IMG/VR virus record: IMGVR_UViG_3300010347_003561 | Coordinates: 1 to 64,000 of that record | Origin: a virus | Taxonomy: Duplodnaviria > Caudoviricetes | Length of the DNA stretch: 64,000 nucleotides | Reading direction: 5' to 3' (one strand) | Shown: positions 29,900 through 54,879 of the stretch, piece by piece | How positions within the stretch are numbered: position 1 is the stretch's first letter | How the letters are laid out: every line of letters begins with the position of its first letter | Program-made: the position numbers and the translations under genes | The notes under the pieces: generated by a model | The model's database searches: none | What the model was told of the DNA's origin: nothing | The model's input: only the letters and a program-made list of their open reading frames with translations

Positions 29900-30067
29900 T
29901 CACAAGTGTCCATGTATGTTACCAGAAGAATCGCCGGGAACGTGTTCCGGCCCCTGGCGAATTAAATAACCGCCGCAAATTGGACATTTTCGAAGTTTCT
30001 GTTCCGGCGTTTTCTCCAGAAACGGGTATTCCAACCCGCACGTTCTACATACGTAAACAAACAGCAT
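29900..30067 (-). CDS. Small zinc-ribbon (FmdB-like) protein
   Basis: AGGAGG RBS then MLFVYVCRTCG...KCPICGG; this is the real part of track ORF 29900-30502. Confidence 0.7.
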   Translation of the reverse strand: MLFVYVCRTCGLEYPFLEKTPEQKLRKCPICGGYLIRQGPEHVPGDSSGNIHGHL

Positions 30068-30082
30068 ATTCCCTCCTAATAC

Positions 30083-30091: not shown

Positions 30092-30123
30092 TTGCCGGCG
30101 TTTTTTCGGCGGTTTCGAATCTA

Positions 30124-30171
30124 TGCAGAAAAGGCATCTGTGCAGAAAAGACATCTGTGCAGAAAAGGTAT
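30124..30171. repeat. 17-bp tandem repeat TGCAGAAAAGRCATCTG (two full copies and one partial)
   Basis: Copies at 30124-30140, 30141-30157 and 30158-30171, at the strand-switch point. Confidence 0.9.
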
Positions 30172-30259
30172 AGGGGGGTGTATAAGTTGGCCCGGTACAA
30201 ATGGGTAGTGAGATTTTAGCCCCACCGGTTCCCGGGACACATAGAAAGGAGGCATGTGT

Positions 30260-33200
30260 ATGCTCGATCTTCTGATCCTTTTTGTCTTCGTCGTGTGCTT
30301 CGCGTTCAACTTCGTCGTGGTTGCACGCAAACTGTCCGTCGTGCACAAGCACGCTCAGCTTGAAGGGGGTGTAAGCATGGTAGCTACGATTCTTCTGCTC
30401 CTCGTTGGGTTGTTCTGTCCCCTGTCCTACGAGGGGTTCGCGCCGAAGTTCTGCGATCCACGCACGCCTGCACGTGGTGTGTGGCATCGTATCAGAGTCC
30501 ATCGCCGCAAGGTCCGCATGGCGGCGTACAAAGCGTACCGAAAGGTACTGCGGAGGTATGCGTTAAAGCGTGCCGTCAAGTTCGCAGTAGTATTGTCCGC
30601 AATCCTCGCCGCCTCATACGCCATAGGTATGCTGGCCATCGGCGGAGTATCCGTCGCCGTTCTCTTCTTCAACAAGAAGAAGATAGCCGAGAGCATGCAG
30701 GCGGAGTCGGAGACTGACCCTGTACTGGATTACGAGGAGCAAGTGAACGCCTGCCGAGGGGTAAAGAACAGGGCTCCGTTGACGGTCGGCATGTACAACA
30801 ACATCGTCGGCATGCTGATAGAACTGTCGGAAAAGGGCGGGCCTGCGGGTCGAGATCTCATACGCCGTTTCTGCCTTCTTAGAGATAAGGACGGCAACGA
30901 GGCGCTTGACAAATCGTCAAACGCTCAGACGCTCATAGAAATAGTTCAGGGGCTGGCGGAGATAATCAAGCCCAAGGACCCGCTAGGAAGAAACCTGAAC
31001 GGTGCAGATTCATGGGCGAAGCATCTCGCGTCAATCCGAGACTTCAACGATGATGGTCGCTTTACCGAAGACGAACTCAAGACCATCGAAGAAGTTGCTG
31101 CGGCGCTGAAACAGATGCGGTCGTTCGGATGCTCGGCGGAACTAGCAGACGACCAGCATAAGGGTGGAAGGTTGCGCTCTATTGCGCACATACTCTCGGT
31201 TGTGCAGAGGCTAAGGAGCGGCGCTGATCTACTGCCCGAGAGTGACACGCGCCAATCCTCCGACGCTGTCAAGTCCTGGGCGGCTGACAAAAAGTCCGCT
31301 GCGTCCAATGATCAGTCGGTCGGAGAGGTCAACAACGCCGTAAGAAACATCGTTAACAACTTCGCCGTTAAAGGGTTCGGCCCGGCGTTCGACAAACCAG
31401 ACCTGTCGAAGGGTGAAATCGGGTTCGACATTAACGAAATAGTCGATCCTACCGAAGCCCAGGAATTTGGCGCGGTGGACGATGAAGTGCTGGACCAGCC
31501 GTCCGCATACAGTACCTTTAACTACAAGTATGCGGTGTTGCCCATCACGACGGAAACCAACGGAAGAAAGAAAATCGTGGCGGCAATAATCCCCGCCGAC
31601 ATAGCCAGAAAACTCGCATTCGATCCGAAGGCTATGGAGGCTAAACTGGCGGACAAGGCAGGTCGTTTCGCCGATCTGGTGAAGGACGAGCTACTAACCG
31701 CCATAGAACCAGAGGATCTTAACATTTCCACCGAAAAGATCCTCGGGAAGTGCAGAGAAAGGCAGGCCAAGCTCTACACACAAAAGGGTGAAGGCGATCC
31801 GAAAGTAATTCGGATATTCAGCTTCGACGCCCTTGAAGGGCTTAACCTGTCGTCAACCAACAGCCCTCTGAAGACTTATGTCTTCAAGCACGAGGGCTAC
31901 CAATTCCACAAGGTCTCGATGCTCCTCAACCCATTCGTCTATGATACACAGGCGAAGAGGGTAATCGGGACGGCATTAAGAAAGTCAGTCATACTCGCCT
32001 TCACGGCTCTCAACAACATCGTTGTTAAGCCGTTGAGGATAGTGATAGATGGAGTCGAAGCCGACGAGATCCACGAGGGTATGCTTACCGCAGTTACAGC
32101 CTTCGTGGATAAAGACTGCGATATGTCGAGAATCCACCCGCATGCTTCACTCGTCGGGGACGGATTCTTGATAGCGAAGGCGCTCAAAGCCGGCATGAAG
32201 TATATGTTCGGCGGCGAGTGGAGATCCATTCCGAAGGGAGCAAAGCTCCAGAGTATAGCCAAAGACAAGGGAGTCGTCGTTGGCTACTTCGGAAAAATCC
32301 TTGCGGTTCTACCCGACGGTCGCGAGTTCGTCGTAGAGGCGATCGAGAACACGCAGGGTAAGCGAAAGAACAAAAGTGCCGTAATCGGCGGAGCCATGAT
32401 GAGACTCGATTCGTCGATCAACGGCACTTCCCACGTCATAGATCCCCGAAACCGCGGCACGGCGAAGCGGTTCTATGACGCCAACGTGGATTGTCTCACG
32501 GCCAAGTTGTTCCTATTCAACGACGACGGAAGCCGTGAAGAGATCGGTCAGGCCCTGCTTGGCCTGCAGAAGTTCTTTGTTGACCTCTCTCAGGATTATA
32601 GCCCGAGAGTAGATAGAGTGTCAACGAATTACTACCAGGCCAACCAGTTAGCTTGGATATTCAAGGCCTTCTTCTTCCTTTCGGAAACGCTCTTCCCGAG
32701 GAAGGCCGAATACGTCGAAGCCGGCAACAGGGCAGCTCACAACGTAAGAGAGTTGTTAAGGCTCTTCCTCGCAATAAAGTACGCAATGGACGACGTGCTT
32801 AAAGTAAAGCGGTCGGACAAGTACATCAAAGAGAGGAAAGAGAAGCTGGCATTCGCTGGTAGCATCGAGCTGGACGAACGCGAAATGATCGGCGTCGTAA
32901 AGCAATGCTCGGTCGTCAACAAGAAGACCGGCGAGACAATGGACATTATGAAGTTCCCCGTGGCAGTTCGCTACTGCCTGTCAAAAGGAATGGTAGATCT
33001 CGCGAGAGTCTTCGCCAACCTCGGAGAGGAAGCCCTCATGACCGCTAACGGTCTGAGCATAGCTTCTCCAAAGGGTTTTGCGGCGGTGAAAAAACTCGCG
33101 ACGCAGCCGATCGTACTAGCGATCCCGGGGTATTCGAGAAAGAGCATAACGCTCATGCTGAATTCCTGGGGTCGCGTGGAAACACACGAAGATAAGAAAG

Positions 33201-35284
33201 TGTGGGTCTATTCACGCGAAGTGAAGGACCTCAAGAGGCTGGTCGAATCACTTGCCTCCTTCGAGTACGGTTGGATCACCGACGATACGCACGTCGGTTT
33301 CTCCAAGATCTACCGTTTCAAGAGGGCCGCGGCGTTGCAGCTCGAGGCTGCCAGGGCGTTGTACAGATACACCAGGGCTGCCGGAATAGCCGCGAACGCT
33401 CCCAGATTCGACGGCTGGGCGGGACGCTTCGCAACCACAAGAGCCGACGGCTGCGTCCTGCCATACAATGCGTTCCTGAAAGGGCTCCGCAAAGAGTCCA
33501 TAAGGAAGCAGATGAACCTTGACGAAGACGACATCAAGTCCATCAACTTCTTCGTCAAGAACAACAAAAGCAAGCGGGTCGCGGCCGACAAGATCCTTGC
33601 GTACCTTAAGAAACACGGCAAGGACAGCGTCGTGCTCGTCAGGCACCCGCTTCTTGGATATATCCCCGGCCTCGAGTCGAAAGTGGTAATCTCCGGCCTC
33701 ACGGCCGAGGACGTCATCTACGTCAACGAGAAGATAGCGACACAGCTCGGTGGCGACGACGACGGGGATATAATCTACGTCATCCCCCTCGCGGTCGAGC
33801 ATTACATGAACGGTGGGAAACCGCCTGTTCATAAGAAGACCGTCGAGGAAATATCGGGGACCGAACACATCGCCGACGCAACGATCGACGTCAAGTTTGG
33901 CGGTCAGATCGAAGCGTTCGAGGGCAATGCTCAAGCAAGCGAGCCAGTCCCTCCGACGATGGTCGAGGAACCCGAAGAAGAGGAGCAGGCAGCCGAAACA
34001 CCGAAGGCTGCCGTTGCTCCTGAACCAGCAAAACCGGTTACGCCTGTGAAGGCAACACCGGAACAACCAGTGAAAGAAAAAGCGGTCGAGACGTCCGCGA
34101 CGGAACAGGAGAAGCCAGCGACGGCGTCGGTCCCTTCTGCGAACAACGTCCTCGAGAAGATCTTCGCCGAGATTAAGAGAATGGCTGGCGAGATTGAGGA
34201 GCTCAGGAGAGATAACGAACTCTTGAGAGCCAAGCTCGCTGCGACCACGGCGGCGAAGGTCGAGCCGAAGGTTGAAGCTCCGAAAGCGGAGGCGCCGAAG
34301 GCAGAACCGAAGGTAGAGGCTCCGAACAAGCCTATCATCTACGAGAAGGATATATTCCAGAGCAAGGCAGAGGCTCTCGTGAATCCTGTCAACCTCGTGG
34401 GCGTGATGGGTGCAGGGCTTGCCGCCAAGTTCCGCGCGAAGTATCCCGATATGTACGACGATTATCGGGGCAGATACCTCGCAGGAAGGCTGACGGAAGC
34501 CTACGCCTATAAAGCCGAAGACGGGAAGACGATAGTGAACTTCCCGACGAAGAAGAACTGGAAGGAGAAGTCCGACATCGACCTGATAAAGAAGAGTTTT
34601 CGCTGGTTGCTCGACAACTACAAGGCTCTCAACATCGGGTCGGTCTGCTTCCCGAAGGTCGGCTGCGGGCTAGGTGGCCTCGACTGGTCTGTCGTGAAGC
34701 CGTACATCGAAAAGTTCGCCTCTCTGGTGAACATACAGGTGTACGTAGTCGAGGACGAGAGCAAGCCTGAGAAGGTGAAAGGCGACAGAGACAAGGTCGT
34801 TGCCTTCACGGGCCATCGCCCCGACCGCATCGGCGGGTACGACGAGAACAACCCGAAGGCCCGCGACGTCAAGGCGAGACTTAGAAAGGCCGTGGATTAC
34901 TGTATAGCACACGGCAAGAAAGTCTTCGTCGTTGGCGGCGCGATCGGAGTCGATATGTGGGCCGGCGAGTTAATAGCCGAGTTAAAGAAAGCCGACCCGT
35001 CTATCAGGCTCGTGATCGCCGAGCCTTTCGCTGGCCACGACGCGAAGTGGAAGGACGAGCATAAGGTAAGATATGCCGCCCTGAAATCGGTCGCGGACAA
35101 AGTCGTCGTAGTCCACAGCGGCGGATACGATGCGTGGAAAATGAACAAGCGCAACGAGTATATGATCGACCGCGCTTCCACGCTTGTAGCCGTGTTCGAC
35201 GGGGATAAGTACGGTGGCACGTACAACGCCCTGTCGTATGCCCGTAAACGCGGCGGCGTAAACATACTGACTATCAAGTGCTAG
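30260..35284 (+). CDS. Single-chain two-barrel RNA polymerase-like protein with N-terminal hydrophobic segments and C-terminal macro and YspA/SLOG domains
   Basis: beta-like GAKLQSIAKDKGV and LPDG; beta'-like RHPLL and QLGGDDDGDIIYV; macro ALVNPVNLVGVMGAGLA...FPKVGCGLGGLDW; SLOG VAFTGHRP...GGAIGVD...RNEYMID...GGT. AGGAGG RBS. Confidence 0.8.
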   Translation: MLDLLILFVFVVCFAFNFVVVARKLSVVHKHAQLEGGVSMVATILLLLVGLFCPLSYEGFAPKFCDPRTPARGVWHRIRVHRRKVRMAAYKAYRKVLRRYALKRAVKFAVVLSAILAASYAIGMLAIGGVSVAVLFFNKKKIAESMQAESETDPVLDYEEQVNACRGVKNRAPLTVGMYNNIVGMLIELSEKGGPAGRDLIRRFCLLRDKDGNEALDKSSNAQTLIEIVQGLAEIIKPKDPLGRNLNGADSWAKHLASIRDFNDDGRFTEDELKTIEEVAAALKQMRSFGCSAELADDQHKGGRLRSIAHILSVVQRLRSGADLLPESDTRQSSDAVKSWAADKKSAASNDQSVGEVNNAVRNIVNNFAVKGFGPAFDKPDLSKGEIGFDINEIVDPTEAQEFGAVDDEVLDQPSAYSTFNYKYAVLPITTETNGRKKIVAAIIPADIARKLAFDPKAMEAKLADKAGRFADLVKDELLTAIEPEDLNISTEKILGKCRERQAKLYTQKGEGDPKVIRIFSFDALEGLNLSSTNSPLKTYVFKHEGYQFHKVSMLLNPFVYDTQAKRVIGTALRKSVILAFTALNNIVVKPLRIVIDGVEADEIHEGMLTAVTAFVDKDCDMSRIHPHASLVGDGFLIAKALKAGMKYMFGGEWRSIPKGAKLQSIAKDKGVVVGYFGKILAVLPDGREFVVEAIENTQGKRKNKSAVIGGAMMRLDSSINGTSHVIDPRNRGTAKRFYDANVDCLTAKLFLFNDDGSREEIGQALLGLQKFFVDLSQDYSPRVDRVSTNYYQANQLAWIFKAFFFLSETLFPRKAEYVEAGNRAAHNVRELLRLFLAIKYAMDDVLKVKRSDKYIKERKEKLAFAGSIELDEREMIGVVKQCSVVNKKTGETMDIMKFPVAVRYCLSKGMVDLARVFANLGEEALMTANGLSIASPKGFAAVKKLATQPIVLAIPGYSRKSITLMLNSWGRVETHEDKKVWVYSREVKDLKRLVESLASFEYGWITDDTHVGFSKIYRFKRAAALQLEAARALYRYTRAAGIAANAPRFDGWAGRFATTRADGCVLPYNAFLKGLRKESIRKQMNLDEDDIKSINFFVKNNKSKRVAADKILAYLKKHGKDSVVLVRHPLLGYIPGLESKVVISGLTAEDVIYVNEKIATQLGGDDDGDIIYVIPLAVEHYMNGGKPPVHKKTVEEISGTEHIADATIDVKFGGQIEAFEGNAQASEPVPPTMVEEPEEEEQAAETPKAAVAPEPAKPVTPVKATPEQPVKEKAVETSATEQEKPATASVPSANNVLEKIFAEIKRMAGEIEELRRDNELLRAKLAATTAAKVEPKVEAPKAEAPKAEPKVEAPNKPIIYEKDIFQSKAEALVNPVNLVGVMGAGLAAKFRAKYPDMYDDYRGRYLAGRLTEAYAYKAEDGKTIVNFPTKKNWKEKSDIDLIKKSFRWLLDNYKALNIGSVCFPKVGCGLGGLDWSVVKPYIEKFASLVNIQVYVVEDESKPEKVKGDRDKVVAFTGHRPDRIGGYDENNPKARDVKARLRKAVDYCIAHGKKVFVVGGAIGVDMWAGELIAELKKADPSIRLVIAEPFAGHDAKWKDEHKVRYAALKSVADKVVVVHSGGYDAWKMNKRNEYMIDRASTLVAVFDGDKYGGTYNALSYARKRGGVNILTIKC

Positions 35285-43011: not shown

Positions 43012-43896
43012 GTGGAGGAAAAAATGTCAATTATCGATCACGAGAGCTTCATAGACATTGGTTATGAAAGAACCTGCGAATGTAAACCGACGAATATAAA
43101 TTGCTTGGAAGCTAAAGAATGGCTTAAATGTCAGCTGGGAGTATGGCAAGTCTCATATGAAGGACGGGATATAAGGGACAAAGAAGTTCACCCTGCGACG
43201 TTTCCAATACAATTGGCTAAAAAAGTAATTTCGTTGTTCACTCACAGAGGCGAATTGGTGGTAGATCCTTTCGCAGGGAGCGGCACAACGCTCGTTGCGG
43301 CACAGGACTTGGACAGAAATGCCGTAGGATTCGATCTCCAGGAGAAGTACGTTCAGTTATCTAATCAACGGGTACAAACAACTACCCTATTCTCGTCAGC
43401 AAAGCAGATCGCAATAGCAGACGATGCCAGGAACATTCCCAAATATTTCAGACCGGATTCAGTAAGCTTAATATGGACGTCTCCGCCTTACGCGAATTTG
43501 CTTAATCGAAAGCGCAAGAATAAATCTCGACGCGAACGAGATAATGGTCAACTAGAAAAAGTGGAACAGTATTCGCAAGACTCCAGAGATCTAGGCACAA
43601 TGCCGATCGAAGAATACACAAAACATATCGGAGATATCTTCGAAAACCTTTTGACTATCTTGAAACCAAAAGGTCATTGCGTGATTAACGTACCGGATAT
43701 GTGGTGGGAGAACGAGCGAATAACAATACATATCAACGTTGTAGAAGAATTGCGAAAGAGAGGTTATGAACTGAGAAACATAATCATCTGGGACAGAACC
43801 AACGTCGTCAATAGAATAGGAATCTTCGGCTGGCCTTCTAACTACATCACTATGGGTGTAACGTTCGAATATCTTCTCGATTTCTGGAAACCTTAA
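43012..43896 (+). CDS. DNA amino-methyltransferase (likely m4C), cognate of the adjacent endonuclease
   Basis: HPATFP, DPFAGSGTT, TSPPY. Confidence 0.85.
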   Translation: MEEKMSIIDHESFIDIGYERTCECKPTNINCLEAKEWLKCQLGVWQVSYEGRDIRDKEVHPATFPIQLAKKVISLFTHRGELVVDPFAGSGTTLVAAQDLDRNAVGFDLQEKYVQLSNQRVQTTTLFSSAKQIAIADDARNIPKYFRPDSVSLIWTSPPYANLLNRKRKNKSRRERDNGQLEKVEQYSQDSRDLGTMPIEEYTKHIGDIFENLLTILKPKGHCVINVPDMWWENERITIHINVVEELRKRGYELRNIIIWDRTNVVNRIGIFGWPSNYITMGVTFEYLLDFWKP

Positions 43897-43913
43897 AAGA
43901 TAGGAGGGGTATA

Positions 43914-44681
43914 GTGGAAATGTACACAAAAGATTCTTTGATCGCTCGATTAAGAGAAATACGAGAATTGGGCTGGATCGAAAACAGAAGGGCAGGCAAT
44001 TCCGGCGGAGTGGGAAATACGCTCGAAGATCTTCTCGGAATCGAAGAGAACAATCTTCCGATTCCTAATGCGGCAGAATGGGAATTGAAATGCCAGCGAT
44101 CAGACACAACATCGCTATTGACGCTGTTTCACATGGAACCATCACCAAGGGCATTTAGATGGGTTCCTTCGGTCCTTCTCAAGCTTTATGGATGGCCGCA
44201 CGAAACAGAAAACGAAAACAGTTTTCGCCAGACAATTACCGGCACAGCAAGAAGCGACCGGGGTTTCCAAGTCGTAGTGGACAGGAACGAAAGAAAGATC
44301 CTTATATCATTCGACAGCAATTCGATCGCTAGTCACCACGACGATTGGAAAGCATCTGTCTTAAAACGTGCAGGTACTCTCGCAGAATTAGACCCGAAAC
44401 CGTACTGGGGTTTCGACGATGTGTTTCACAAAGCCGGTACCAAGCTTCATAACTGCTTCTACATAATCGCAGATGCGAAAACAGAAAAAGGGAAGCTTCA
44501 TTTTGCCTATAACAAAATTTTGATGCTCAAGAAATTTGATTTAGAAGGATTCCTGAATGGAATCGAAGAAGGACATATCTATGTTGACTTCGACGCAAAA
44601 ACAACCCACAACCATGGAACGAAGTTTCGAATAAGGCCTTCGGCTTTTCCGTTACTGTACGACGAAGTAGTGGAAATCTAA
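43914..44681 (+). CDS. MvaI/BcnI-family restriction endonuclease
   Basis: GGVGNTLEDLLGIEENN...ELK...LTLF..EP...HNHGTKFRI signature. Confidence 0.85.
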   Translation: MEMYTKDSLIARLREIRELGWIENRRAGNSGGVGNTLEDLLGIEENNLPIPNAAEWELKCQRSDTTSLLTLFHMEPSPRAFRWVPSVLLKLYGWPHETENENSFRQTITGTARSDRGFQVVVDRNERKILISFDSNSIASHHDDWKASVLKRAGTLAELDPKPYWGFDDVFHKAGTKLHNCFYIIADAKTEKGKLHFAYNKILMLKKFDLEGFLNGIEEGHIYVDFDAKTTHNHGTKFRIRPSAFPLLYDEVVEI

Positions 44682-44702
44682 CAAAACTCAAGCAAACATG
44701 CG

Positions 44703-44726
44703 AACCGCCCTTCGGGGCGGTTTTTT
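44703..44726 (+). terminator. Intrinsic terminator
   Basis: CCGCCC-TTCG-GGGCGG plus T6. Confidence 0.8.
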
Positions 44727-44773
44727 ATTACTCCAATGCGTTGAGAAAATCATTCGAGAATTGAGGTGAAAAA

Positions 44774-45376
44774 ATGAGACAGGTAACTTCTAACGTCTAT
44801 ACGTTGGACGAACTGGACGAAAAAGCGAAAGAAAAAGCAATGTGCGTGATAAACGACATGTTGTGGGATAACCTGAACGATTACAACGACGAATTAGAAG
44901 CACGACTGAAAGATCTCCTGCGCGATAAAGGCTACGACGGAAAGATGGAATTCCATTGGGAATGGAACGGCTCTACAGTGTTCGCAAACTTTTCCGTCGA
45001 AACTACGTGCACAGATTGGATTTCACTCCACAGGGACAGGCTCGACTGGAAAGCGAACACGATATTCGACAAATTCGCCGCCGAACACGATATCGAAATA
45101 AGAATCAAGAAAAGCCACAACATCTTCGTGGAAATAGACGAGCTGTCCGACGAGGAAATGGACGATTGGGTATATCTGAACCGCACAATTCACGACGTGG
45201 TGAACAAAGATGCCCGGGAGATTACCCAGCGCATGTGCGAGATCGTGGATTGCCATTACGAAAACATCGTGAGCGACGAAGCGGCGATCAGCTACGCCGA
45301 GTTGAACAAACTCGAATTCTACAACGACGGTACGATCTACGACGGCAGTTCTTACGAAAAGGAGGCAACCGTATGA
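44774..45376 (+). CDS. Acidic conserved hypothetical protein
   Basis: VYTLDELDEKAKEKA...SDEA......EFYNDG pattern recalled from phage/plasmid proteins. Confidence 0.6.
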   Translation: MRQVTSNVYTLDELDEKAKEKAMCVINDMLWDNLNDYNDELEARLKDLLRDKGYDGKMEFHWEWNGSTVFANFSVETTCTDWISLHRDRLDWKANTIFDKFAAEHDIEIRIKKSHNIFVEIDELSDEEMDDWVYLNRTIHDVVNKDAREITQRMCEIVDCHYENIVSDEAAISYAELNKLEFYNDGTIYDGSSYEKEATV

Positions 45377-45837
45377 AAAGAATATTCTACAGGCAAGACA
45401 TTGTAGTGGATTCGGAGGATAGCAACACGCTACTCCTTCTGAAGGATACCAATTGCAAATACCTCGTCGATGATTGGAGCCTCGAAGGTTTCCAGTCCGG
45501 CGTTCTGTGTGACAAACTAGCAGTCGATTTCAGCAATGATCTTGTCTTCAAAAGAGACGGCGAGGCAATTTTCGAACTCGAACACAGGATTGACGGCGAG
45601 CCTTTCCACATCGGAGAGTTCAGCACCGACCCGCGGGAAGTCTTCGACGAGGAATCGTTGAACTACTTCGATTCTCTCTTCGAAGGGCAAAGCATGCCGA
45701 CGGATTTCCTCACCGCGGTGGAAAGGGAGAACCTTCTAAGGTATTGCATGTTCGCAAACGGCCAGTTCAACGTGAGAGTTATAACCGGCAGAAAGTGCCG
45801 ACTTCTGAAAGACAATGAAATAGCGGCATTGCTTTAG
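45373..45837 (+). CDS. Hypothetical protein
   Basis: GGAGG RBS before ATG 45373; the track's upstream extension overlaps the previous gene. Confidence 0.55.
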   Translation: MKRIFYRQDIVVDSEDSNTLLLLKDTNCKYLVDDWSLEGFQSGVLCDKLAVDFSNDLVFKRDGEAIFELEHRIDGEPFHIGEFSTDPREVFDEESLNYFDSLFEGQSMPTDFLTAVERENLLRYCMFANGQFNVRVITGRKCRLLKDNEIAALL

Positions 45838-45847
45838 GAGGCGCAAC

Positions 45848-46636
45848 ATGGACATACGAGAAGCGACGGAAAGGCTCGAGGCAGCCTTTCATAAATGGAT
45901 AGATTCCGACGATTTCAGGAAAATCGAGAAGTGCATGAGACTCTTCCACAACTATTCCTTCTTCAACATCGTTCTTATCCTTTTCCAGAAACCAGACGCC
46001 ACTAGAGTCGCCGGATTCAACACGTGGAAGAAACTGAACAGGTACGTGAAAAAGGGAGAGAAAGGAATAGCTATATTGGCGCCCACCACACGAAAGCGAA
46101 CCGCAATCAACGACAAAGGCGATGAAGAGACAATAACATACATAAGCGGATTCAAAGCAACTTACGTCTTCGACGTCAGCCAGACCGAAGGACAGGAATT
46201 GCCGTCCGTAAGCGAAATTCGGATAAAAGACGAATACGAAGGATTTCAAACAATCGCGCGAACCGTGAAGGATATGGGCTACGAAATACTGTTCTACGAC
46301 GGAGAAAGCACCATGAAAGGCTTCACGAAGAAAGGCACCAAGGCCATCTACGTACACGAGGAAGAGACCACCGGCCAGAAGTCAAGCACGATAGTACACG
46401 AATGGGCGCATCTCCAGCTCGGAAACGAACTGGAACGCGCCGACGAAGAGATAGTCGTACAGACCGCTTCGTACTTCATAATGGCCTCCCTCGGATTCGA
46501 CACGTCCTGGTACACGGCACAGTACGTTCAGAACTGGTCGCGCAGCAAGAAATGGGCCGATGTTTCCAGACTCTTCGCCATCTCCGACAGACTATGCAAG
46601 AAATTCCTGCAAGAATCCGAAGCGATAGCCGCATAG
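45848..46636 (+). CDS. ArdC-like ssDNA-binding protein with zincin (HExxH) domain
   Basis: FHNYSFFN..LI..QKP.AT.VAGF..WK.L.R.VKKGEKGI.ILAP; HEWAH. Confidence 0.8.
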   Translation: MDIREATERLEAAFHKWIDSDDFRKIEKCMRLFHNYSFFNIVLILFQKPDATRVAGFNTWKKLNRYVKKGEKGIAILAPTTRKRTAINDKGDEETITYISGFKATYVFDVSQTEGQELPSVSEIRIKDEYEGFQTIARTVKDMGYEILFYDGESTMKGFTKKGTKAIYVHEEETTGQKSSTIVHEWAHLQLGNELERADEEIVVQTASYFIMASLGFDTSWYTAQYVQNWSRSKKWADVSRLFAISDRLCKKFLQESEAIAA

Positions 46637-50129: not shown

Positions 50130-50256
50130 TACGGTAGCGTACGAAACGGTTCCATCGAATTGTAATCGAGAGGTTGCGGGTTCGAGTCCCGCCCGGCATA
50201 TTGCCGGTAGCTCAATCGGCAGAGCGCTAAAGCTCCGTTTCAAAATGTTCTCCGTA
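50130..50256 (+). ncRNA. YrlA-like Y RNA unit 4 with permuted tRNA-Thr(UGU)-like module
   Basis: TACGG/CCGTA, TAGCGTA/GTTCT, GAAACGG/CCGTTTC; TCGA-ATTGTAA-TCGA, T-arm GCGGG-TTCGAGT-CCCGC, CCGGCA-TAT-TGCCGG, D-arm GCTC-AATCGGCA-GAGC. Confidence 0.88.
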
Positions 50257-50273
50257 CCAGGCAATTCGAAGAA

Positions 50274-50308
50274 AAGATCCCGCGCGAAAGTGCGGGGTCT
50301 TTTTTTTA
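50274..50308 (+). terminator. Intrinsic terminator closing the Ro/Y RNA operon
   Basis: GATCCCGCGC-GAAA-GTGCGGGGTC plus T-tract. Confidence 0.85.
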
Positions 50309-50349
50309 TCACCGCTTCCACACGCCAGAATAGAAAAAAGGAGGCAGGC

Positions 50350-51222
50350 ATGAGAGCTTACAAACTGTTTTCAAAGCCAGAAAGCAAATCCCTTTACAGA
50401 AAAGGGCTCAACGAAATAGCGCCGAAAGCATCAAACGACGAAATACAATCCGGCTACTTCTGTTTCGCGCGCGAACACATCTTGAGGTTTCTCCCTTATG
50501 TGGGGCATAAACCTTACATATCCGAAGTGGAGATCCCTGCGAATGCAAACGTCATCGAGCAGCAGCACTACTTCAAAAGCGACAAAATAATCATCAAGGG
50601 AATCAAGCCCTTCGATTGGCTCACCCTCGAGGAGCTTATAAGAGAGGGGGCCGAGTGCAAAGGCAGCACTGGAAGAGAATTGCTGATGTGGATACTCAGC
50701 GCAGGAGACAAGAAGATGCTCGACGTCTTTGTCTCTTACTCGAACATACGTCTCTTCGAAGAGCCTTACGTGCTCTCTGCTCCTGCGAGAGTGGAGAACG
50801 CCGGCATTTTCAAATATCTCTTCGAAAAACCCATCAACTTCTCGCAGAGCTTCTTGATAGACTTCGTGAAAGAGATAATCGGGCGCAACCTAGTTCACCA
50901 GCACGAATGGCACGAAGTCTTCAAAACGATCTTTCCGAAAGTCCGTAAGCCGGACGAGATCATGAGACTGTTCGTCGAAGAGAACGAATACGACGCAATA
51001 CATTGCATACTCAACGATCACAACTACATTCCAAATCCTGAAACCCTGTTCTTTTCGTGGTTAAAAGCCTTTAAGTATCAAAATCCTGACTGGAAGGACT
51101 CCAGAAGAATATTCTACCTTTTCATCGTAAAAGTGAATGACTCTTTCTTCCCGGAAATGCTCAACTATTTTTCGGAAATAGCGCAACTGATCGAAGAAAC
51201 CAAACAAGAGGAGGTTATTTAG
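50350..51222 (+). CDS. Paralog family protein 1 (possible ART-like N-domain plus helical repeats)
   Basis: YK...YRKGLN...GYFCF...ISEVEIP.NA.V....KSDKIII...FD. Confidence 0.6.
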   Translation: MRAYKLFSKPESKSLYRKGLNEIAPKASNDEIQSGYFCFAREHILRFLPYVGHKPYISEVEIPANANVIEQQHYFKSDKIIIKGIKPFDWLTLEELIREGAECKGSTGRELLMWILSAGDKKMLDVFVSYSNIRLFEEPYVLSAPARVENAGIFKYLFEKPINFSQSFLIDFVKEIIGRNLVHQHEWHEVFKTIFPKVRKPDEIMRLFVEENEYDAIHCILNDHNYIPNPETLFFSWLKAFKYQNPDWKDSRRIFYLFIVKVNDSFFPEMLNYFSEIAQLIEETKQEEVI

Positions 51223-51223
51223 A

Positions 51224-52015
51224 ATGGGATATTCCCACTATATGTATTTCTGCCAGCCAACAAAAGAGCTTTCCGGAGAGGCCTTCTCCGTGATAAAGGA
51301 AATAATCGAAGACTACGAGAGTAGAGGAGTCGTCGAGGTTTATAACAACGTCTTCGGAGAGAGACTGTTGAATCCCAACATCATAAACTTCAACGGCGTT
51401 GGAAAAGATTCCTGCGAGAGCTTCTGCTACGTTGCCGGTTTGTGGAATCCTCAGTGCGGCAACGACCATAAATTACATTTCGAATACTCAAAAACCAACA
51501 GATACCCTTACGACGATTGCGTGATGGATGTCATGCTCGTTCTTTCGCACTTCGACAACACGATTTATCTTGCAAGCGACGGCATATACGAATGGAAGCC
51601 TGCGTTCGAGAGGATCGAGAAAAAGTACGGATTCGAGCTCTCCGATCAAAAGGACATGATATACGGCGTAGAAGACTTTGATTCGTGGGAAGAGGGCGAA
51701 GATCCCAACGAGAATAGAAAACTCAAATACTTCGATGGAAGAATTTCCACACTCCCTGCAATCGAATACGAAACTCCTCGATTCAAAGCGACTAAACATC
51801 TGCCGCTCGAAGAAAGGATGCGAATAATAAACGAGGAAACGAAAAAGATAGTCGGTCCAGACTACGAATGGGAATCGTGGATCGAAAACGGAAAAATCGA
51901 AATCAAGTTGACAAAAACACCGACAAACAACGAAGATCCAGCGAAAAAATATGAATTTGTCAGGGCTTTCGAAGCTGTGGCCTACGCGTACACGAACGTC
52001 TGGAATGGCTATTAA
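51224..52015 (+). CDS. Conserved hypothetical protein
   Basis: MGYSHY...FNG....ESF...KTNRYPYD...SDG..EW pattern. Confidence 0.6.
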   Translation: MGYSHYMYFCQPTKELSGEAFSVIKEIIEDYESRGVVEVYNNVFGERLLNPNIINFNGVGKDSCESFCYVAGLWNPQCGNDHKLHFEYSKTNRYPYDDCVMDVMLVLSHFDNTIYLASDGIYEWKPAFERIEKKYGFELSDQKDMIYGVEDFDSWEEGEDPNENRKLKYFDGRISTLPAIEYETPRFKATKHLPLEERMRIINEETKKIVGPDYEWESWIENGKIEIKLTKTPTNNEDPAKKYEFVRAFEAVAYAYTNVWNGY

Positions 52016-52030
52016 CTATAAGGAGGAGAC

Positions 52031-52402
52031 ATGGAGAAAATACTTTGGGTAATTATGTCAATCGAACAGTGCGAGGAATTGGAAGACTCCGTCGAAGCAA
52101 AAGCAAGCGATGTTATCAACGATGTGTTCATCGACCAGAACTTCGAAATCTTCGTCCCGTCGGAAGAATTCAGGGCGAAACTTCCAGGACTTTGCCTTGA
52201 AAAGCTCGGGTACGAACCGGTTACAGACTCCTGGAATAGCGACGATGAGAACATAAACCTTCTCGAATTGTACACGGACCAGTACGTAATCACGCTAGAC
52301 GACAGCGGCATGCCGATCGATATTGTAATAGTCGAACTCTTCGACAAAGGCGTGCCGGTAGCCGAAACCGTACCGACCGAACAGGAAGCACCGGCACAAT
52401 AA
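52031..52402 (+). CDS. Highly acidic hypothetical protein
   Basis: AGGAGG RBS; Asp/Glu-rich. Confidence 0.55.
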   Translation: MEKILWVIMSIEQCEELEDSVEAKASDVINDVFIDQNFEIFVPSEEFRAKLPGLCLEKLGYEPVTDSWNSDDENINLLELYTDQYVITLDDSGMPIDIVIVELFDKGVPVAETVPTEQEAPAQ

Positions 52403-52456
52403 GCATACGAAAGAGGCCGTCGAAAAGGGCGACCTCTTCCTTCTAAGGAGGAAAAA

Positions 52457-52906
52457 ATGTCGTATTTCAAACTGTCGATAGAACCGGTAAAAGACGAGGA
52501 AATACTGGTGGCGCTTGCGCAAGACTGCAAGCTCACCAAAGATCTCATCTTGGCCAACAACGCCATCTATTCCAACAGGAAAATGATTCTCAATGAACTC
52601 CTCGACAAACTCGTAGCTGAAGAAACGCTTACAGTACCGAAGGAAGGCACAATGCGCAAGCTCGACGAGTTCTTGGACCCGGCTTACTACGTCGGATTCG
52701 AGGATATCGAAGAGATACTGAAACACGTGCCGAAAGAAAAAATCGAGTCGTATTTCGGAAATCCAGAAAACGTCACAGGCTATGCGGTGAGAGAAAGAGA
52801 CGGCGACTACGAGGAGATATGGCTCACCACATCGTCTCGAGGCGTTTTTTATCTTCGATTCCATGCCGCATCATGTTCAAAGACAAACAAAGGAGGCAGA
52901 GCATGA
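52457..52906 (+). CDS. Hypothetical protein
   Basis: AGGAGG RBS. Confidence 0.55.
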   Translation: MSYFKLSIEPVKDEEILVALAQDCKLTKDLILANNAIYSNRKMILNELLDKLVAEETLTVPKEGTMRKLDEFLDPAYYVGFEDIEEILKHVPKEKIESYFGNPENVTGYAVRERDGDYEEIWLTTSSRGVFYLRFHAASCSKTNKGGRA

Positions 52907-53646
52907 AACTCTACAAGTTCTTCAACGAAAATATGAAACATTACGAGCTCCAATACAGAGAAGGGCTGAACACGCTACCACCCGGCGAAGAGTTCGATCC
53001 CGACACCGGTTGCACACCTGGCGGCATCTACTTCGCGAGTGAGGAGATATTCCAGTTCATCACTTATGGACCATGGATATCCGAGATTGAAATACCACCA
53101 AACGCAAAAGTCTCCTACGGCAATACGAAACACAAAGCCGACAAAGTGATCGTGAAGAAGTTCCGTAAATTCGACGAAGAAGTGATCGACGAACTCGTGG
53201 CACAGGGTGCAAATACGCATAACGCCGCCGGAGGCGAACTCATAAGATGGTTCATTCGCACGAAAGATGCGAATTTGAGCAACCGCTCGCTGATCACAGC
53301 CCTCTTCGAAGAATATCATTACGCGCTGTACACCGCCACGGTCAATTCGTCCTACAACATGCCAAAAGAAAGAGACCATTTAACTAACATTATCAACCAT
53401 CTGCTCAATCCGCCAAACTACAAAGTGATGACCTTCCTAAGCAGACTGATGTGCGAAGAGGCGCTTTGCAATTACAAGAACTTCACTAACATGTTCATGG
53501 CCTTCGTTCAACACCTTGACAAGCAGTCCATAAGGGAAATCTACGGACTCGCCGTCAAAAACCGCAAACACGCCTTCGTAAAAGCAATGTGGAATAAGTA
53601 CAAGCACGAATTCATGTCCGGCGATCGAGATGAAAAGAATGACTGA
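52903..53646 (+). CDS. Paralog family protein 2 (possible ART-like N-domain plus helical repeats)
   Basis: YKF...QYREGLN...CTPGGIYFA...YG.WISEIEIP.NAKV....KADKVIV...FD. Confidence 0.65.
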   Translation: MKLYKFFNENMKHYELQYREGLNTLPPGEEFDPDTGCTPGGIYFASEEIFQFITYGPWISEIEIPPNAKVSYGNTKHKADKVIVKKFRKFDEEVIDELVAQGANTHNAAGGELIRWFIRTKDANLSNRSLITALFEEYHYALYTATVNSSYNMPKERDHLTNIINHLLNPPNYKVMTFLSRLMCEEALCNYKNFTNMFMAFVQHLDKQSIREIYGLAVKNRKHAFVKAMWNKYKHEFMSGDRDEKND

Positions 53647-53815
53647 TTCGGAAAGGCAAAAATTGAGGTACTGGCGAAAGAAAAACGCCGGCGTATGCCC
53701 GAAATGCGGTAGTGGAATACCGGATAACAAATACACTTATTGCCAAGCGTGTCTGAGCGAACAAGCCCTTAGAAGGAAAAGCTGCAGGCACGAAAACTCG
53801 TCTCTGCGGCATTAA
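53630..53815 (+). CDS. Small zinc-finger protein
   Basis: CPKC...CQAC. Confidence 0.5.
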   Translation: MKRMTDSERQKLRYWRKKNAGVCPKCGSGIPDNKYTYCQACLSEQALRRKSCRHENSSLRH

Positions 53816-53828
53816 AAAGGAGGTTGTC

Positions 53829-54089
53829 ATGAGGGAAAGAGAACTGGAATTGCTTAAGAAACAGTTCAAAAGCATGCTACCGGATATAGAAGAAGACTTA
53901 GTGAAAAGGGCAAAAGAGCTTCTCATGACCGGCTGCATCTCGGAAAAGGAATACAAGGAGTACCTTGGCGACGGAGACAAGTTCGTGCTCGCCAAGGCGA
54001 TAATTTCCGCCTTTTTCGACGATAAACCGTATTATCCGCCGTCGAACCACAAGTCGTTGACCCTGTTCAAGCGACTCTCGAAGTTTTAA
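53829..54089 (+). CDS. Hypothetical protein
   Basis: AGGAGG RBS. Confidence 0.55.
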   Translation: MRERELELLKKQFKSMLPDIEEDLVKRAKELLMTGCISEKEYKEYLGDGDKFVLAKAIISAFFDDKPYYPPSNHKSLTLFKRLSKF

Positions 54090-54111
54090 TTCGGAAAGGA
54101 TTAGTTAAATT

Positions 54112-54879
54112 ATGAAGCTGACTAACTCGAGAGAAAGATTCTACAAGTTCTTCTACGGCAACAAAGATTATTCAGGCTTCTCGTTCAAGAAGGGGCTAAA
54201 CGTGTTCCAGGGAAAGTTCGACATATACGAGCACTCTATGACCAACGGCTTCCACTTTGTCGAATTAGAACACTTCACGGAGCATATTATCTACGGCTCC
54301 TCGATAGCCGAAATACTGATTCCAGAAGACGCGACAGTAACCAAATACGGCATCGTGTACAGCGCCGACAAGATCATCGTAACTGAATTCAGAAAATTCG
54401 ATTTCGACGTTTTCCATGAACTTATGCACTTCAAGCACCTACAGGAAATGAGCGAAATGCAGGATATCGAAAACGTCGTCAGATGGGCCGTCCTGAACGG
54501 CGATCATAAAATGCTCGAAGGCATCATGGAATACTATCCCATCTCCAAGATCATGAGAGCAGTAAAACCGTACCTGTACGAGTCGATAGTGAAATTCGAC
54601 CTTCCTTTAGCCTATATTCTCATTGCAGAGTCTATGTTCATAGGCACAGAATCGCTACAGCACTTCGTAGAAATGTCAAAATGCTCGATCACGATCGCAG
54701 CGAGAATATACGAAAGCACACCCGTCGCAACGAGAGGACTCATGATGCTGTATGCAGCGAATCTGGAAGACAAAGAACTCCTGAAAGAGATTTTGAAAGC
54801 CGAACAGAAATGCGACGAAAAAGCGGTTCCATATCTTTTGCAGTCGCAGATGTTAATAGAAAGCACGGCAAAGATATAA
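54112..54879 (+). CDS. Paralog family protein 3 (possible ART-like N-domain plus helical repeats)
   Basis: YKF...FKKGLN...NGFHF...YG..IAEILIP.DATV....ADKIIV...FD. Confidence 0.6.
   Translation: MKLTNSRERFYKFFYGNKDYSGFSFKKGLNVFQGKFDIYEHSMTNGFHFVELEHFTEHIIYGSSIAEILIPEDATVTKYGIVYSADKIIVTEFRKFDFDVFHELMHFKHLQEMSEMQDIENVVRWAVLNGDHKMLEGIMEYYPISKIMRAVKPYLYESIVKFDLPLAYILIAESMFIGTESLQHFVEMSKCSITIAARIYESTPVATRGLMMLYAANLEDKELLKEILKAEQKCDEKAVPYLLQSQMLIESTAKI

Follow-up and report, generated by a model that had tools for sequence, protein, structure and literature searches.

What role does an apparent RNA polymerase (RNAP) play in a phage when it carries, on a single C-terminal arm, two domains of families associated with ADP-ribose and related nucleotides? 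This question is raised by a plus-strand gene of an uncultured, large tailed virus (Duplodnaviria; Caudoviricetes) represented by IMG/VR record IMGVR_UViG_3300010347_003561. The stretch analysed here, referred to as the window, covers positions 1 to 64,000 of the record, that is, the first 64 kb of a linear sequence of 99,892 bp with a CheckV completeness of approximately 65%. An initial annotation, made from the letters alone, had described the gene as an RNAP fused through a flexible linker to a macrodomain and a YspA/SLOG domain. Every motif quoted there was present in the translation of a single open reading frame (ORF), and the domain limits given were right to approximately 15–50 nt; however, a predicted N-terminal membrane anchor of the same protein had been omitted. 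The order of the parts is three N-terminal hydrophobic segments, a single-chain two-barrel polymerase, a linker, a DarG-type macrodomain and a YpsA-clade SLOG domain. We propose that the product is a phage RNAP with a tethered eraser of DNA ADP-ribosylation, an assignment to which we give an even chance.

The fusion is encoded by one uninterrupted ORF (30254–35284, plus strand), which would specify 1676 aa from the ATG at 30254. The start was taken as the ATG at 30260, because an AGGAGG sequence is located 7 nt upstream of it, and the protein then comprises 1674 aa (Table 1). The possibility that the fusion is an assembly artefact was excluded by the finding of ten distinct full-length forms (1674–1794 aa) in independent NCBI, JGI, ENA and Logan assemblies, on contigs of up to 115,930 bp. 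One protein cluster contains eight sequences of 1674–1678 aa and a fragment, while a sister cluster consists of two sequences of 1792–1794 aa. All nine of the full-length forms that were aligned keep the anchor, polymerase, linker, macrodomain and SLOG domain. The locus of the variant P0003 (contig L001), which is 92–95% identical to the window protein, is syntenic with the window. The synonymous and nonsynonymous differences from P0003 numbered 74 and 37 in the polymerase core, 33 and 15 in the macrodomain, and 22 and 41 in the linker, which evolves fastest of all segments and is where indels occur. In P0003 and P0024 the linker helix and the macrodomain are separated by an additional domain, seen as a 116-aa insertion in the alignment; a search with the extra stretch (153 aa, L001 10454–10912) gave neither a Pfam match nor an Atlas lead. 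Since an additional domain is held within the arm of these variants, the C-terminal arm is suggested to be a modular carrier that swaps its cargo.

Residues 1–1360 were recognized by no Pfam and no PHROG model. When residues 148–1240 were used in an exhaustive HMMER search against 1.84 billion representatives, only 15 proteins were returned, and apart from the near-identical P0002 these relatives were 400–2400 residues long and lacked any RNAP-related Pfam family (one had only N-terminal helix-hairpin-helix, HhH, motifs). The motifs SxSSxN, NPF, GDG, K-x7-KG, NTQGKR and a terminal RHPxxG...GDDDGD..P are invariant or nearly so in the family. The K-x7-KG element (GAKLQSIAKDKG) and NTQGKRKNK are located at 32237–32374. 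The lysines of GAKLQSIAKDKG are numbers 664 and 672 in the 1676-aa protein, corresponding to K517 and K525 of the 1093-aa query; the element occurs in 14/14 relatives, and the 14 aligned family sequences share, without exception, both lysines, its glycine, and the Q and R. Its spacing is that of RpoB GDKxAxRHGxKG. Toward the end of the core, VRHPLLG...GGDDDGD...IPL spans 33629–33790 with the metal-binding DDDGD at 33755–33769, an R-x-P...DxDGD...P arrangement that is that of the RpoC catalytic barrel. RHPxxG...GDDDGD..P is kept in the relatives and aligns with the RNP...DFDGD...P site of gp96 of Thermus phage P23-45 (8h2n/8h2m). The tape-measure-fused RNAP of this phage (8H2N/8H2M) was also the best match of the family profile in the PDB, at a marginal E value of 0.39, the aligned part being the catalytic barrel.

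The AlphaFold2 (AF2) model built on the 14-sequence alignment had a mean predicted local distance difference test (pLDDT) score of 57.7 overall and was confident in both barrel regions. All top 50 Foldseek matches of the model were RNAP beta or beta' chains (E 1e-5 to 3e-3). VIA-align gave Z scores of 14–16.7 against the second-largest RNAP subunits (Rpa135, Rpb2, African swine fever virus, ASFV, and bacterial beta) for model residues 276–639, with root-mean-square deviations (rmsd) of 3.5–4.8 Å over 230–300 residues. No other large ORF of the record contains DxDGD. As beta-like and beta'-like motifs are invariant and the fold matches are to RNAPs, we conclude from alignment and model that the core (approximately residues 420–1180) is a single-chain two-barrel RNAP of an unclassified family, which would synthesize RNA; the motifs, Foldseek matches and Z scores thus bear out the RNAP assignment of the initial annotation. 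The polymerase most likely transcribes phage genes, because its gene is the first of a co-directional non-structural arm of approximately 70 kb. These proteins add an unannotated family, without a Pfam or PHROG model, to the single-chain two-barrel RNAPs.

The linker that follows the core is rich in Pro, Glu, Ala and Lys, as had been noticed from the sequence, and holds a heptad-like amphipathic (coiled-coil-like) helix at 34142–34243, which stays similar in P0003 while the linker flanks diverge quickly. The AF2 model of the C-terminal 324 aa (mean pLDDT 93) shows a pair of well-defined domains with a short connector of low confidence between them, and the mutual orientation of the two domains is undefined (predicted template modelling score, pTM, 0.59). 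In the first of them, Pfam Macro (PF01661) matched residues 1376–1482 (E 6e-12, 45.9 bits at a cut-off of 22), and this match (34379–34699) was the only one to Macro in the 99.9-kb record. The PADLOC DarG model matched with E 7e-45 at profile positions 6–155 of 329, that is, in the macro half only. PDB sequence matches were to DarG (5m3i/5m31/7omu), which scored better than TARG1 (E 1e-22 vs 1e-7). The domain model superposed on Mycobacterium tuberculosis DarG (5m3i) with a template modelling (TM) score of 0.87 and an rmsd of 1.4 Å over 147 columns; for DarG of M. tuberculosis, T. aquaticus and Thermosipho africanus the TM scores were 0.86–0.87 and the rmsd values 1.4–1.8 Å, with TARG1 next. 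The catalytic-site Asn (VNLVG), the FPTKK lysine and the GCGLGG loop are kept and are invariant in alignment A8. NFPTKKNW aligns with NFPTKKHW of DarG, and the GCGLGG loop also aligns with DarG residues; the catalytic lysine of the DarG FPTK motif is TaqDarG K80. The DarG-type identity proposed initially is therefore upheld by both profile and model.

The nearest named relatives of the macrodomain in a set of 5.8 billion proteins were DarG antitoxins of approximately 345–353 aa (about 40% identity), and none of the best 120 relatives of the arm (178–567 aa) had both macro and SLOG domains. DarG possesses a C-terminal DarT-binding half and an adjacent darT gene, whereas the window protein has neither; darT (PF14487) found no match in the record, in a control search that matched in no genome. 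Because only profile positions 6–155 of 329 match and darT has no match, the macrodomain is, as judged from sequence, an orphan DarG-like domain and not the antitoxin of a resident toxin–antitoxin pair. The same subtype, catalytic Asn and Lys positions and near-identical fold are shared with the macrodomains of DarG and of the phage protein AdfM (5M3I, 5M31/5M3E, 7OMU). Identity was 36% to AdfM (E 8e-30), the Asn of VNLVGVMG aligning with N23, and 37% to M. tuberculosis DarG. AdfM and other phage versions are standalone proteins, whereas the macrodomain of the window protein would reach DNA by its covalent tether to the polymerase. In two other close relatives, P0030 and P0037 (approximately 530 aa), the macrodomain shares the chain with an N6/N4 DNA methyltransferase and a PF03602 methylase domain; here too, a DNA-acting enzyme is the partner of a DarG-type macrodomain.

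The terminal domain was matched by Pfam YpsA (PF06908) at residues 1516–1662 (E 2e-27, 96.5 bits at a cut-off of 27.7), and its model superposed on Bacillus subtilis YpsA (2nx2) with a TM score of 0.83 and an rmsd of 1.9 Å over 166 columns, in agreement with the YspA/SLOG label given at first. The GxD/E nucleotide-site signature is intact (GVD in GGAIGVDMW), with GGAIGVDMWAGE aligned to SGQLGVELWAAE of YpsA (G53/E55); this motif was defined in a study of YpsA and linked there to substrate binding (PMC6459960). A role of the domain as a Thoeris-type sensor was considered and rejected: PADLOC returned nothing besides DarG, and no Thoeris-type SLOG model matched at E <= 0.01.

Table 1. Features of the polymerase-fusion locus (positions in the window)
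Feature	Position	Strand	Basis
Three tandem 17-bp repeats, core TGCAGAAAAG	30121..30171	+	Read directly; within the 190-bp intergenic gap ahead of the polymerase gene
Whole fusion gene, 1674 aa	30260..35284	+	ORF list and translation, ribosome-binding-site spacing, full-length variants, synteny in L001
Predicted membrane anchor: hydrophobic segments 30269-30325, 30368-30424 and 30584-30679 around an Arg/Lys-rich loop	30269..30679	+	Hydropathy
Helical region ahead of the polymerase core, lineage-specific	30695..31519	+	No Pfam or PHROG match
Beta-subunit-like module of the two-barrel polymerase	31520..32611	+	VIA-align fold matches, invariant residues
Beta'-like double-psi beta-barrel, RHP...GGDDDGD...P	33392..33790	+	Motif, alignments, model pLDDT 80-89, Foldseek matches to beta' chains
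Ala/Glu/Pro/Lys-rich flexible linker	33929..34333	+	135 aa; A 19%, E 19%, P 14%, K 11%
DarG/TARG1-type macrodomain (ADP-ribosyl hydrolase fold)	34343..34789	+	Pfam, PADLOC, PDB sequence matches, model
YpsA-clade SLOG domain	34799..35281	+	Pfam, phrog_289, PDB 2nx2 by sequence and fold

Comparison with other loci suggested that such domains are repeatedly found next to phage transcription genes. P0004 is a standalone polymerase of 801 residues, 34% identical in the core to the window protein, and the next gene, 12 nt after it, encodes a 149-residue DarG-type macrodomain (PADLOC E 6e-53) that is 38% identical to that of the window protein; an RNase H gene lies three genes beyond the macro gene. 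A block of macro, phage sigma factor, phrog_289 SLOG-like and deoxynucleoside monophosphate (dNMP) kinase genes, followed by RNase H or a 5'-3' exonuclease, was found in Kuravirus (phiEco32-like) genomes, where it was seen in two cultured coliphages, Escherichia phage ev_rybdy3 (L024 8938–11898) and Escherichia phage Paul (L025 2995–5835). The Kuravirus macro protein is 34% identical to the macrodomain of the window protein (E 6e-29), and phrog_289 is also the family matched by the SLOG domain. The Kuravirus block and the window thus have in common a DarG-type macro and a phrog_289 SLOG beside a transcription determinant, and RNase H follows in the block as it does at standalone polymerases; they differ in that the Kuravirus partners are separate genes and the determinant, instead of being a phage polymerase, is a sigma factor that serves the host RNAP. 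Taken together, the window fusion, the P0004 loci and Kuravirus support, at the level of sequence and gene order, a link of macro/SLOG with phage transcription in three independent settings. No annotated polymerase adjoins the macro gene of Thermus phage phiMa. We found no mention of the macro–sigma–SLOG association of Kuravirus in the literature searched; this previously unremarked block of well-studied phiEco32-like coliphages is genetically testable in a laboratory host.

How would such an arm act? DarT2 requires single-stranded DNA, and DarT-type toxins mark it. The DarG-type macrodomain would hydrolyse ADP-ribose off the thymidines on which host DarT2-type toxins place it in single-stranded phage DNA, and the flexible tether would hold the domain at the transcription bubble; it is there that single strands become accessible, and there that lesions would hinder the polymerase. 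The ligand or substrate of the SLOG domain would be the ADP-ribose moiety or a related nucleotide derived from NAD. We infer DNA-ADP-ribose as the substrate, action in cis and the time of expression. A DNA eraser is favoured by the DarG-type fold, the intact catalytic motifs, the AdfM precedent and the linkage to transcription genes. In that precedent, the counter-defence enzyme AdfM (gp104) of PhiKZ strips DarT2-made ADP-ribose from TNTC DNA and fully rescues DarT2 toxicity, while the activity of its N23A mutant is reduced or lost (PMC13309987); AdfM is concentrated at the phage DNA by being imported into the phage nucleus. A study of M. tuberculosis found transcription by its RNAP to be inhibited in vitro by ADP-ribosyl-thymidine, and the authors suggested that transcription supplies single-stranded DNA to DarT (PMC12170906). 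The counter-defence role that the initial annotation had assigned to the protein is consequently plausible and has comparative support in the macro neighbour of P0004, the Kuravirus block and the identity to AdfM, the function itself being deduced.

Several points weigh against a tethered DNA eraser. The support for the window protein and for all members of its family consists of sequence and predicted structures, and the RNAP model is of only moderate confidence (mean pLDDT 57.7). Neither macro nor SLOG was found near the polymerase genes in the P0005 lineage (eight loci), where RNase H is present and macro absent, or on the short P0007 and P0009 contigs. The Kuravirus partners are separate proteins beside a sigma factor; therefore, physical tethering is not needed for the role of the pair, and shared expression timing could explain the linkage. 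No phage-specific promoter motif emerged from the plus-strand arm, which the polymerase would transcribe, as no 9-mer was enriched in its 39 intergenic regions. Finally, Iyer et al. (2022) hold that phage Macro and SLOG domains mainly target soluble ADP-ribose derivatives (PMC9503650).

The last view leads to the main rival explanation, in which macro and SLOG degrade or sequester NAD-derived immune signals or toxic metabolites (such as cyclic ADP-ribose, cADPR, isomers or ADPr-1''-phosphate) and the fusion to the first early protein only ensures their earliest, stoichiometric expression. The free proteins of Kuravirus and the intact nucleotide site of the SLOG domain keep it alive, but the macrodomain belongs to the DarG subtype, whose characterised bacterial and phage members act on ADP-ribosyl-DNA, the SLOG domain had no match among the Thoeris-type models mentioned above, and a polymerase or sigma-factor partner in three separate settings would be left unexplained; we regard action on soluble molecules as unlikely. 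Quite unlikely, in our judgement, is an arm that acts on the RNA made by the polymerase, by removing ADP-ribose that enzymes of the host attach to nascent transcripts or by processing NAD- or ADP-ribose-linked 5' ends. A flexible tether beside the RNA exit would suit co-transcriptional action, and the phage invests in RNA biology, as it encodes a CCA-adding enzyme and a Ro/TROVE protein. Macrodomains of the TARG1 class, the next-best structural match, can take ADP-ribose off phosphorylated nucleic-acid ends; nevertheless, the closest matches by sequence and by structure are to DarG and not to TARG1 (E 1e-22 vs 1e-7), the Pfam survey of the record revealed neither an RNA ligase nor Tpt1, and we know of no macrodomain that reverses the CmdT-type modification of adenine. 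ADP-ribosylation of mRNA is in itself a known anti-phage defence (CmdTAC, PMC11618068).

If the arm were instead a sensor, the polymerase would be turned on or off when an NAD-derived ligand bound to SLOG, to macro or to both, and transcription could, for instance, be delayed until NAD depletion or an immune signal is perceived. Iyer et al. (2022) read sporadic fusions of SLOG to nucleic-acid enzymes as SLOG-regulated (PMC9503650), and the conserved linker helix could transmit oligomerisation. A full catalytic signature in the macrodomain, however, argues for an enzyme, a long, low-complexity and fast-evolving linker is a poor allosteric connection, and the macro is a separate gene in the P0004 lineage; we consider a sensor very unlikely. 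A replication polymerase of primase-like or PolD-like type, with the macrodomain protecting replication templates, appears highly improbable. It would fit with the absence of any detected DNA polymerase of family A, B or C from the 99.9-kb record, despite a clamp, a single-stranded DNA-binding protein (SSB), helicases and RecA, and with the RNase H genes downstream of the standalone relatives; moreover, it is mainly replication that DarT2 blocks (see also PMC13309987). On the other hand, the record is approximately 65% complete and its missing part may contain a DNA polymerase, the phage has a primase of DnaG type, and the top 50 fold matches are all transcriptases, none of them PolD.

A broader version of the DNA-eraser proposal can be put forward only tentatively, as possible but doubtful: phages in general may clear ADP-ribose from DNA where it is being transcribed, a strategy that would have arisen more than once. 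Phage transcription determinants, comprising single-chain RNAPs of two unrelated lineages and one sigma factor, would have recruited DarG-type macro, SLOG or NADAR erasers, either as fusions or through close gene linkage. If this were true, transcription bubbles would be a main target of DarT-type immunity, and in the phage of the window a membrane-fixed polymerase might reel in and clean the incoming DNA simultaneously. Phage macrodomains that undo the DarT mark (AdfM and related proteins) were shown to matter only recently, and to the question of how such erasers locate lesions across a large genome a polymerase-borne eraser suggests an answer, scanning by transcribing, a logic analogous to transcription-coupled repair and directly testable in a defined in vitro system.

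The polymerase and its arm can be set beside several known systems. P23-45 gp96 (virion RNAP) and gp64 (non-virion RNAP) are likewise phage single-chain two-barrel RNAPs with a DxDGD barrel (Chaban et al. 2024, PMC10770324; 8H2M/8H2N), and in gp96, as in the window protein, the polymerase is fused to non-polymerase modules including membrane domains. Its partners, however, are a tape measure and a metallopeptidase, and gp96 is late and packaged, whereas the membrane segments of the window protein are N-terminal and its gene heads the non-structural arm. YonO of the Bacillus prophage SPbeta (PMC5467207) and the virion RNAP gp66 of crAss-like phages are also single-polypeptide phage RNAPs homologous to the beta/beta' catalytic barrels, in which no macro or SLOG domains were reported in the literature searched. 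No sequence similarity of the window family to YonO-type enzymes was detectable. Judged by the terminase, the closest cultured phages are Moorella phage MTATph1, at 32% identity, and Bacillus phage 0305phi8-36, at 29%, the latter being credited in the literature with a YonO-like RNAP; kinship with such an enzyme was rejected, as the family profile matched nothing in either phage.

Viral SLOG domains belong mostly to the YpsA clade and are often paired with Macro or NADAR (Iyer et al. 2022, PMC9503650). The Macro and YpsA-clade SLOG pairs of tailed phages described by Iyer, Burroughs, Anantharaman and Aravind (2022) comprise the same families as the window protein, in one polypeptide or adjacent, with predicted NAD/ADP-ribose handling; the SLOG fusions listed there have helix-turn-helix (HTH), HNH, exonuclease, helicase and kinase partners, and an RNAP fusion is not mentioned. 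Polyvalent proteins that include N4-type virion RNAP modules (Iyer et al. 2017, PMC5512222) are similar in that a giant phage polypeptide joins an RNAP to conflict-related domains (for example ADP-ribosyltransferase, ART, metallopeptidase and lysozyme), but the N4 module has an unrelated, T7-like fold, the genes lie among late virion genes, the proteins are injected, and macro and SLOG are not among the listed RNAP partners. No two-barrel RNAP fused to macro or SLOG was found in the literature searched. The initial annotation knew of no described protein with this architecture; within the literature searched, this applies to the attachment of the Macro–SLOG pair to an RNAP, but not to the pairing itself, which is already known in phages.

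The N-terminal hydrophobic segments reach Kyte-Doolittle means over 19 residues of 3.04, 2.37 and 2.25, with a strongly basic loop among them. The reading frame is open over the 147 N-terminal codons, while the other two frames hold 7 and 1 stops, and the hydrophobic region is almost unchanged across the nine aligned variants. On these sequence properties the segments are likely to be a membrane anchor, probably fixing the enzyme in the inner membrane; a membrane-anchored RNAP of cellular type would be unusual in itself. The helices of the region that follows were modelled with pLDDT < 50 and have no counterpart in the standalone relatives, whose matches start near query residue 370. With regard to deployment, the gene adjoins the packaging module but lies on the opposite strand, where it is preceded by an intergenic region with repeats and stands first in the non-structural arm; the standalone polymerase relatives are located among small early-like genes. 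Strand, head-of-arm position and the repeat-bearing upstream region favour early expression. Packaging in the virion and injection of the protein are rather doubtful, and are kept in consideration because of the adjacent packaging module, the membrane segments and the precedents of P23-45 gp96 and the polyvalent proteins.

The family varies at both ends of the polymerase. From DxDGD to the C-terminus there are 12–37 residues in the standalone members, 66 in P0013, 118 in P0014 and 508 in the window protein; since standalone chains end so soon after DxDGD, the C-terminal arm of 500 residues is, by this comparison, an addition in the lineage of the window protein. The N-terminus is hydrophobic in the window protein and carries HhH motifs in P0014, and P0004 has nothing comparable. 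The family is therefore composed of a conserved core of approximately 700 residues with lineage-specific add-ons at both ends. In two metagenomic contigs of activated-sludge type (L020 4940–7179 and L022 5764–7919) the enzyme is split between two overlapping genes, one for a beta-like half of 400–427 aa and one for a DxDGD half of approximately 319 aa, and the relatives of approximately 400 aa (P0006, P0008 and P0010) are probably beta-like halves of such split enzymes. P0013, a relative of 2412 aa, is encoded beside a terminase gene (L017 6001–13239) on a 158-kb contig that needs TAG read as Gln, and may be a virion-type giant polymerase of a recoded phage. A word-based profile search for more members returned only two close relatives, pattern scans of IMG/VR and of GTDB genomes found no further ones, and the six loci obtained from a metagenome scan all belong to the P0005 lineage and have neither macro nor SLOG.

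Genes for the large terminase, portal, major head protein and tail sheath are found on the minus strand between position 1 and approximately 29.8 kb, from which it follows that the virus is a phage with a contractile tail. Beyond 30.2 kb nearly every gene of the record is on the plus strand. This arm codes for the CCA-adding enzyme, sliding clamp, SSB, methyltransferases, an MvaI/BcnI-type nuclease, an ArdC-N protein, the Ro/TROVE protein, DnaG-type primase, RecA, helicases (RecD/UvrD-type) and NrdD, among others. This replication set is thus present without a detected DNA polymerase of family A, B or C, whose gene may be in the uncaptured part of the record. At 43012–46633 and elsewhere on the plus arm there are several DNA methyltransferases (N6/N4 and C5), an MvaI/BcnI-family restriction endonuclease, an ArdC-N anti-restriction domain, ParA-like ATPases and RadC; this methyltransferase/ArdC-N/ParA/RadC mixture resembles plasmid leading regions. 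ART-like N-domains in three paralogs (50245–54879), which could have made the macrodomain a self-antidote, were discarded for want of Pfam (E <= 1) or PADLOC support.

Within the 99.9-kb record the 17-bp triple repeat is unique to its position upstream of the polymerase gene, which rules it out as a recurring promoter; it adjoins a TATAAG element and is partly kept upstream of the P0003 gene in L001. Judged from its sequence and place, it may be an operator over the promoter of the polymerase gene or an iteron-like site. Divergent from the polymerase gene lies an ORF for a 56-aa zinc-ribbon protein (29900–30070, minus strand) with its own AGGAGG and a weak PF09723 match (E 7e-5), and this divergent layout with a repeat-bearing gap looks like the regulated promoter of an early gene. 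A Zn_ribbon_8 gene is also located upstream of the standalone polymerase P0005 (L007 964–1149).

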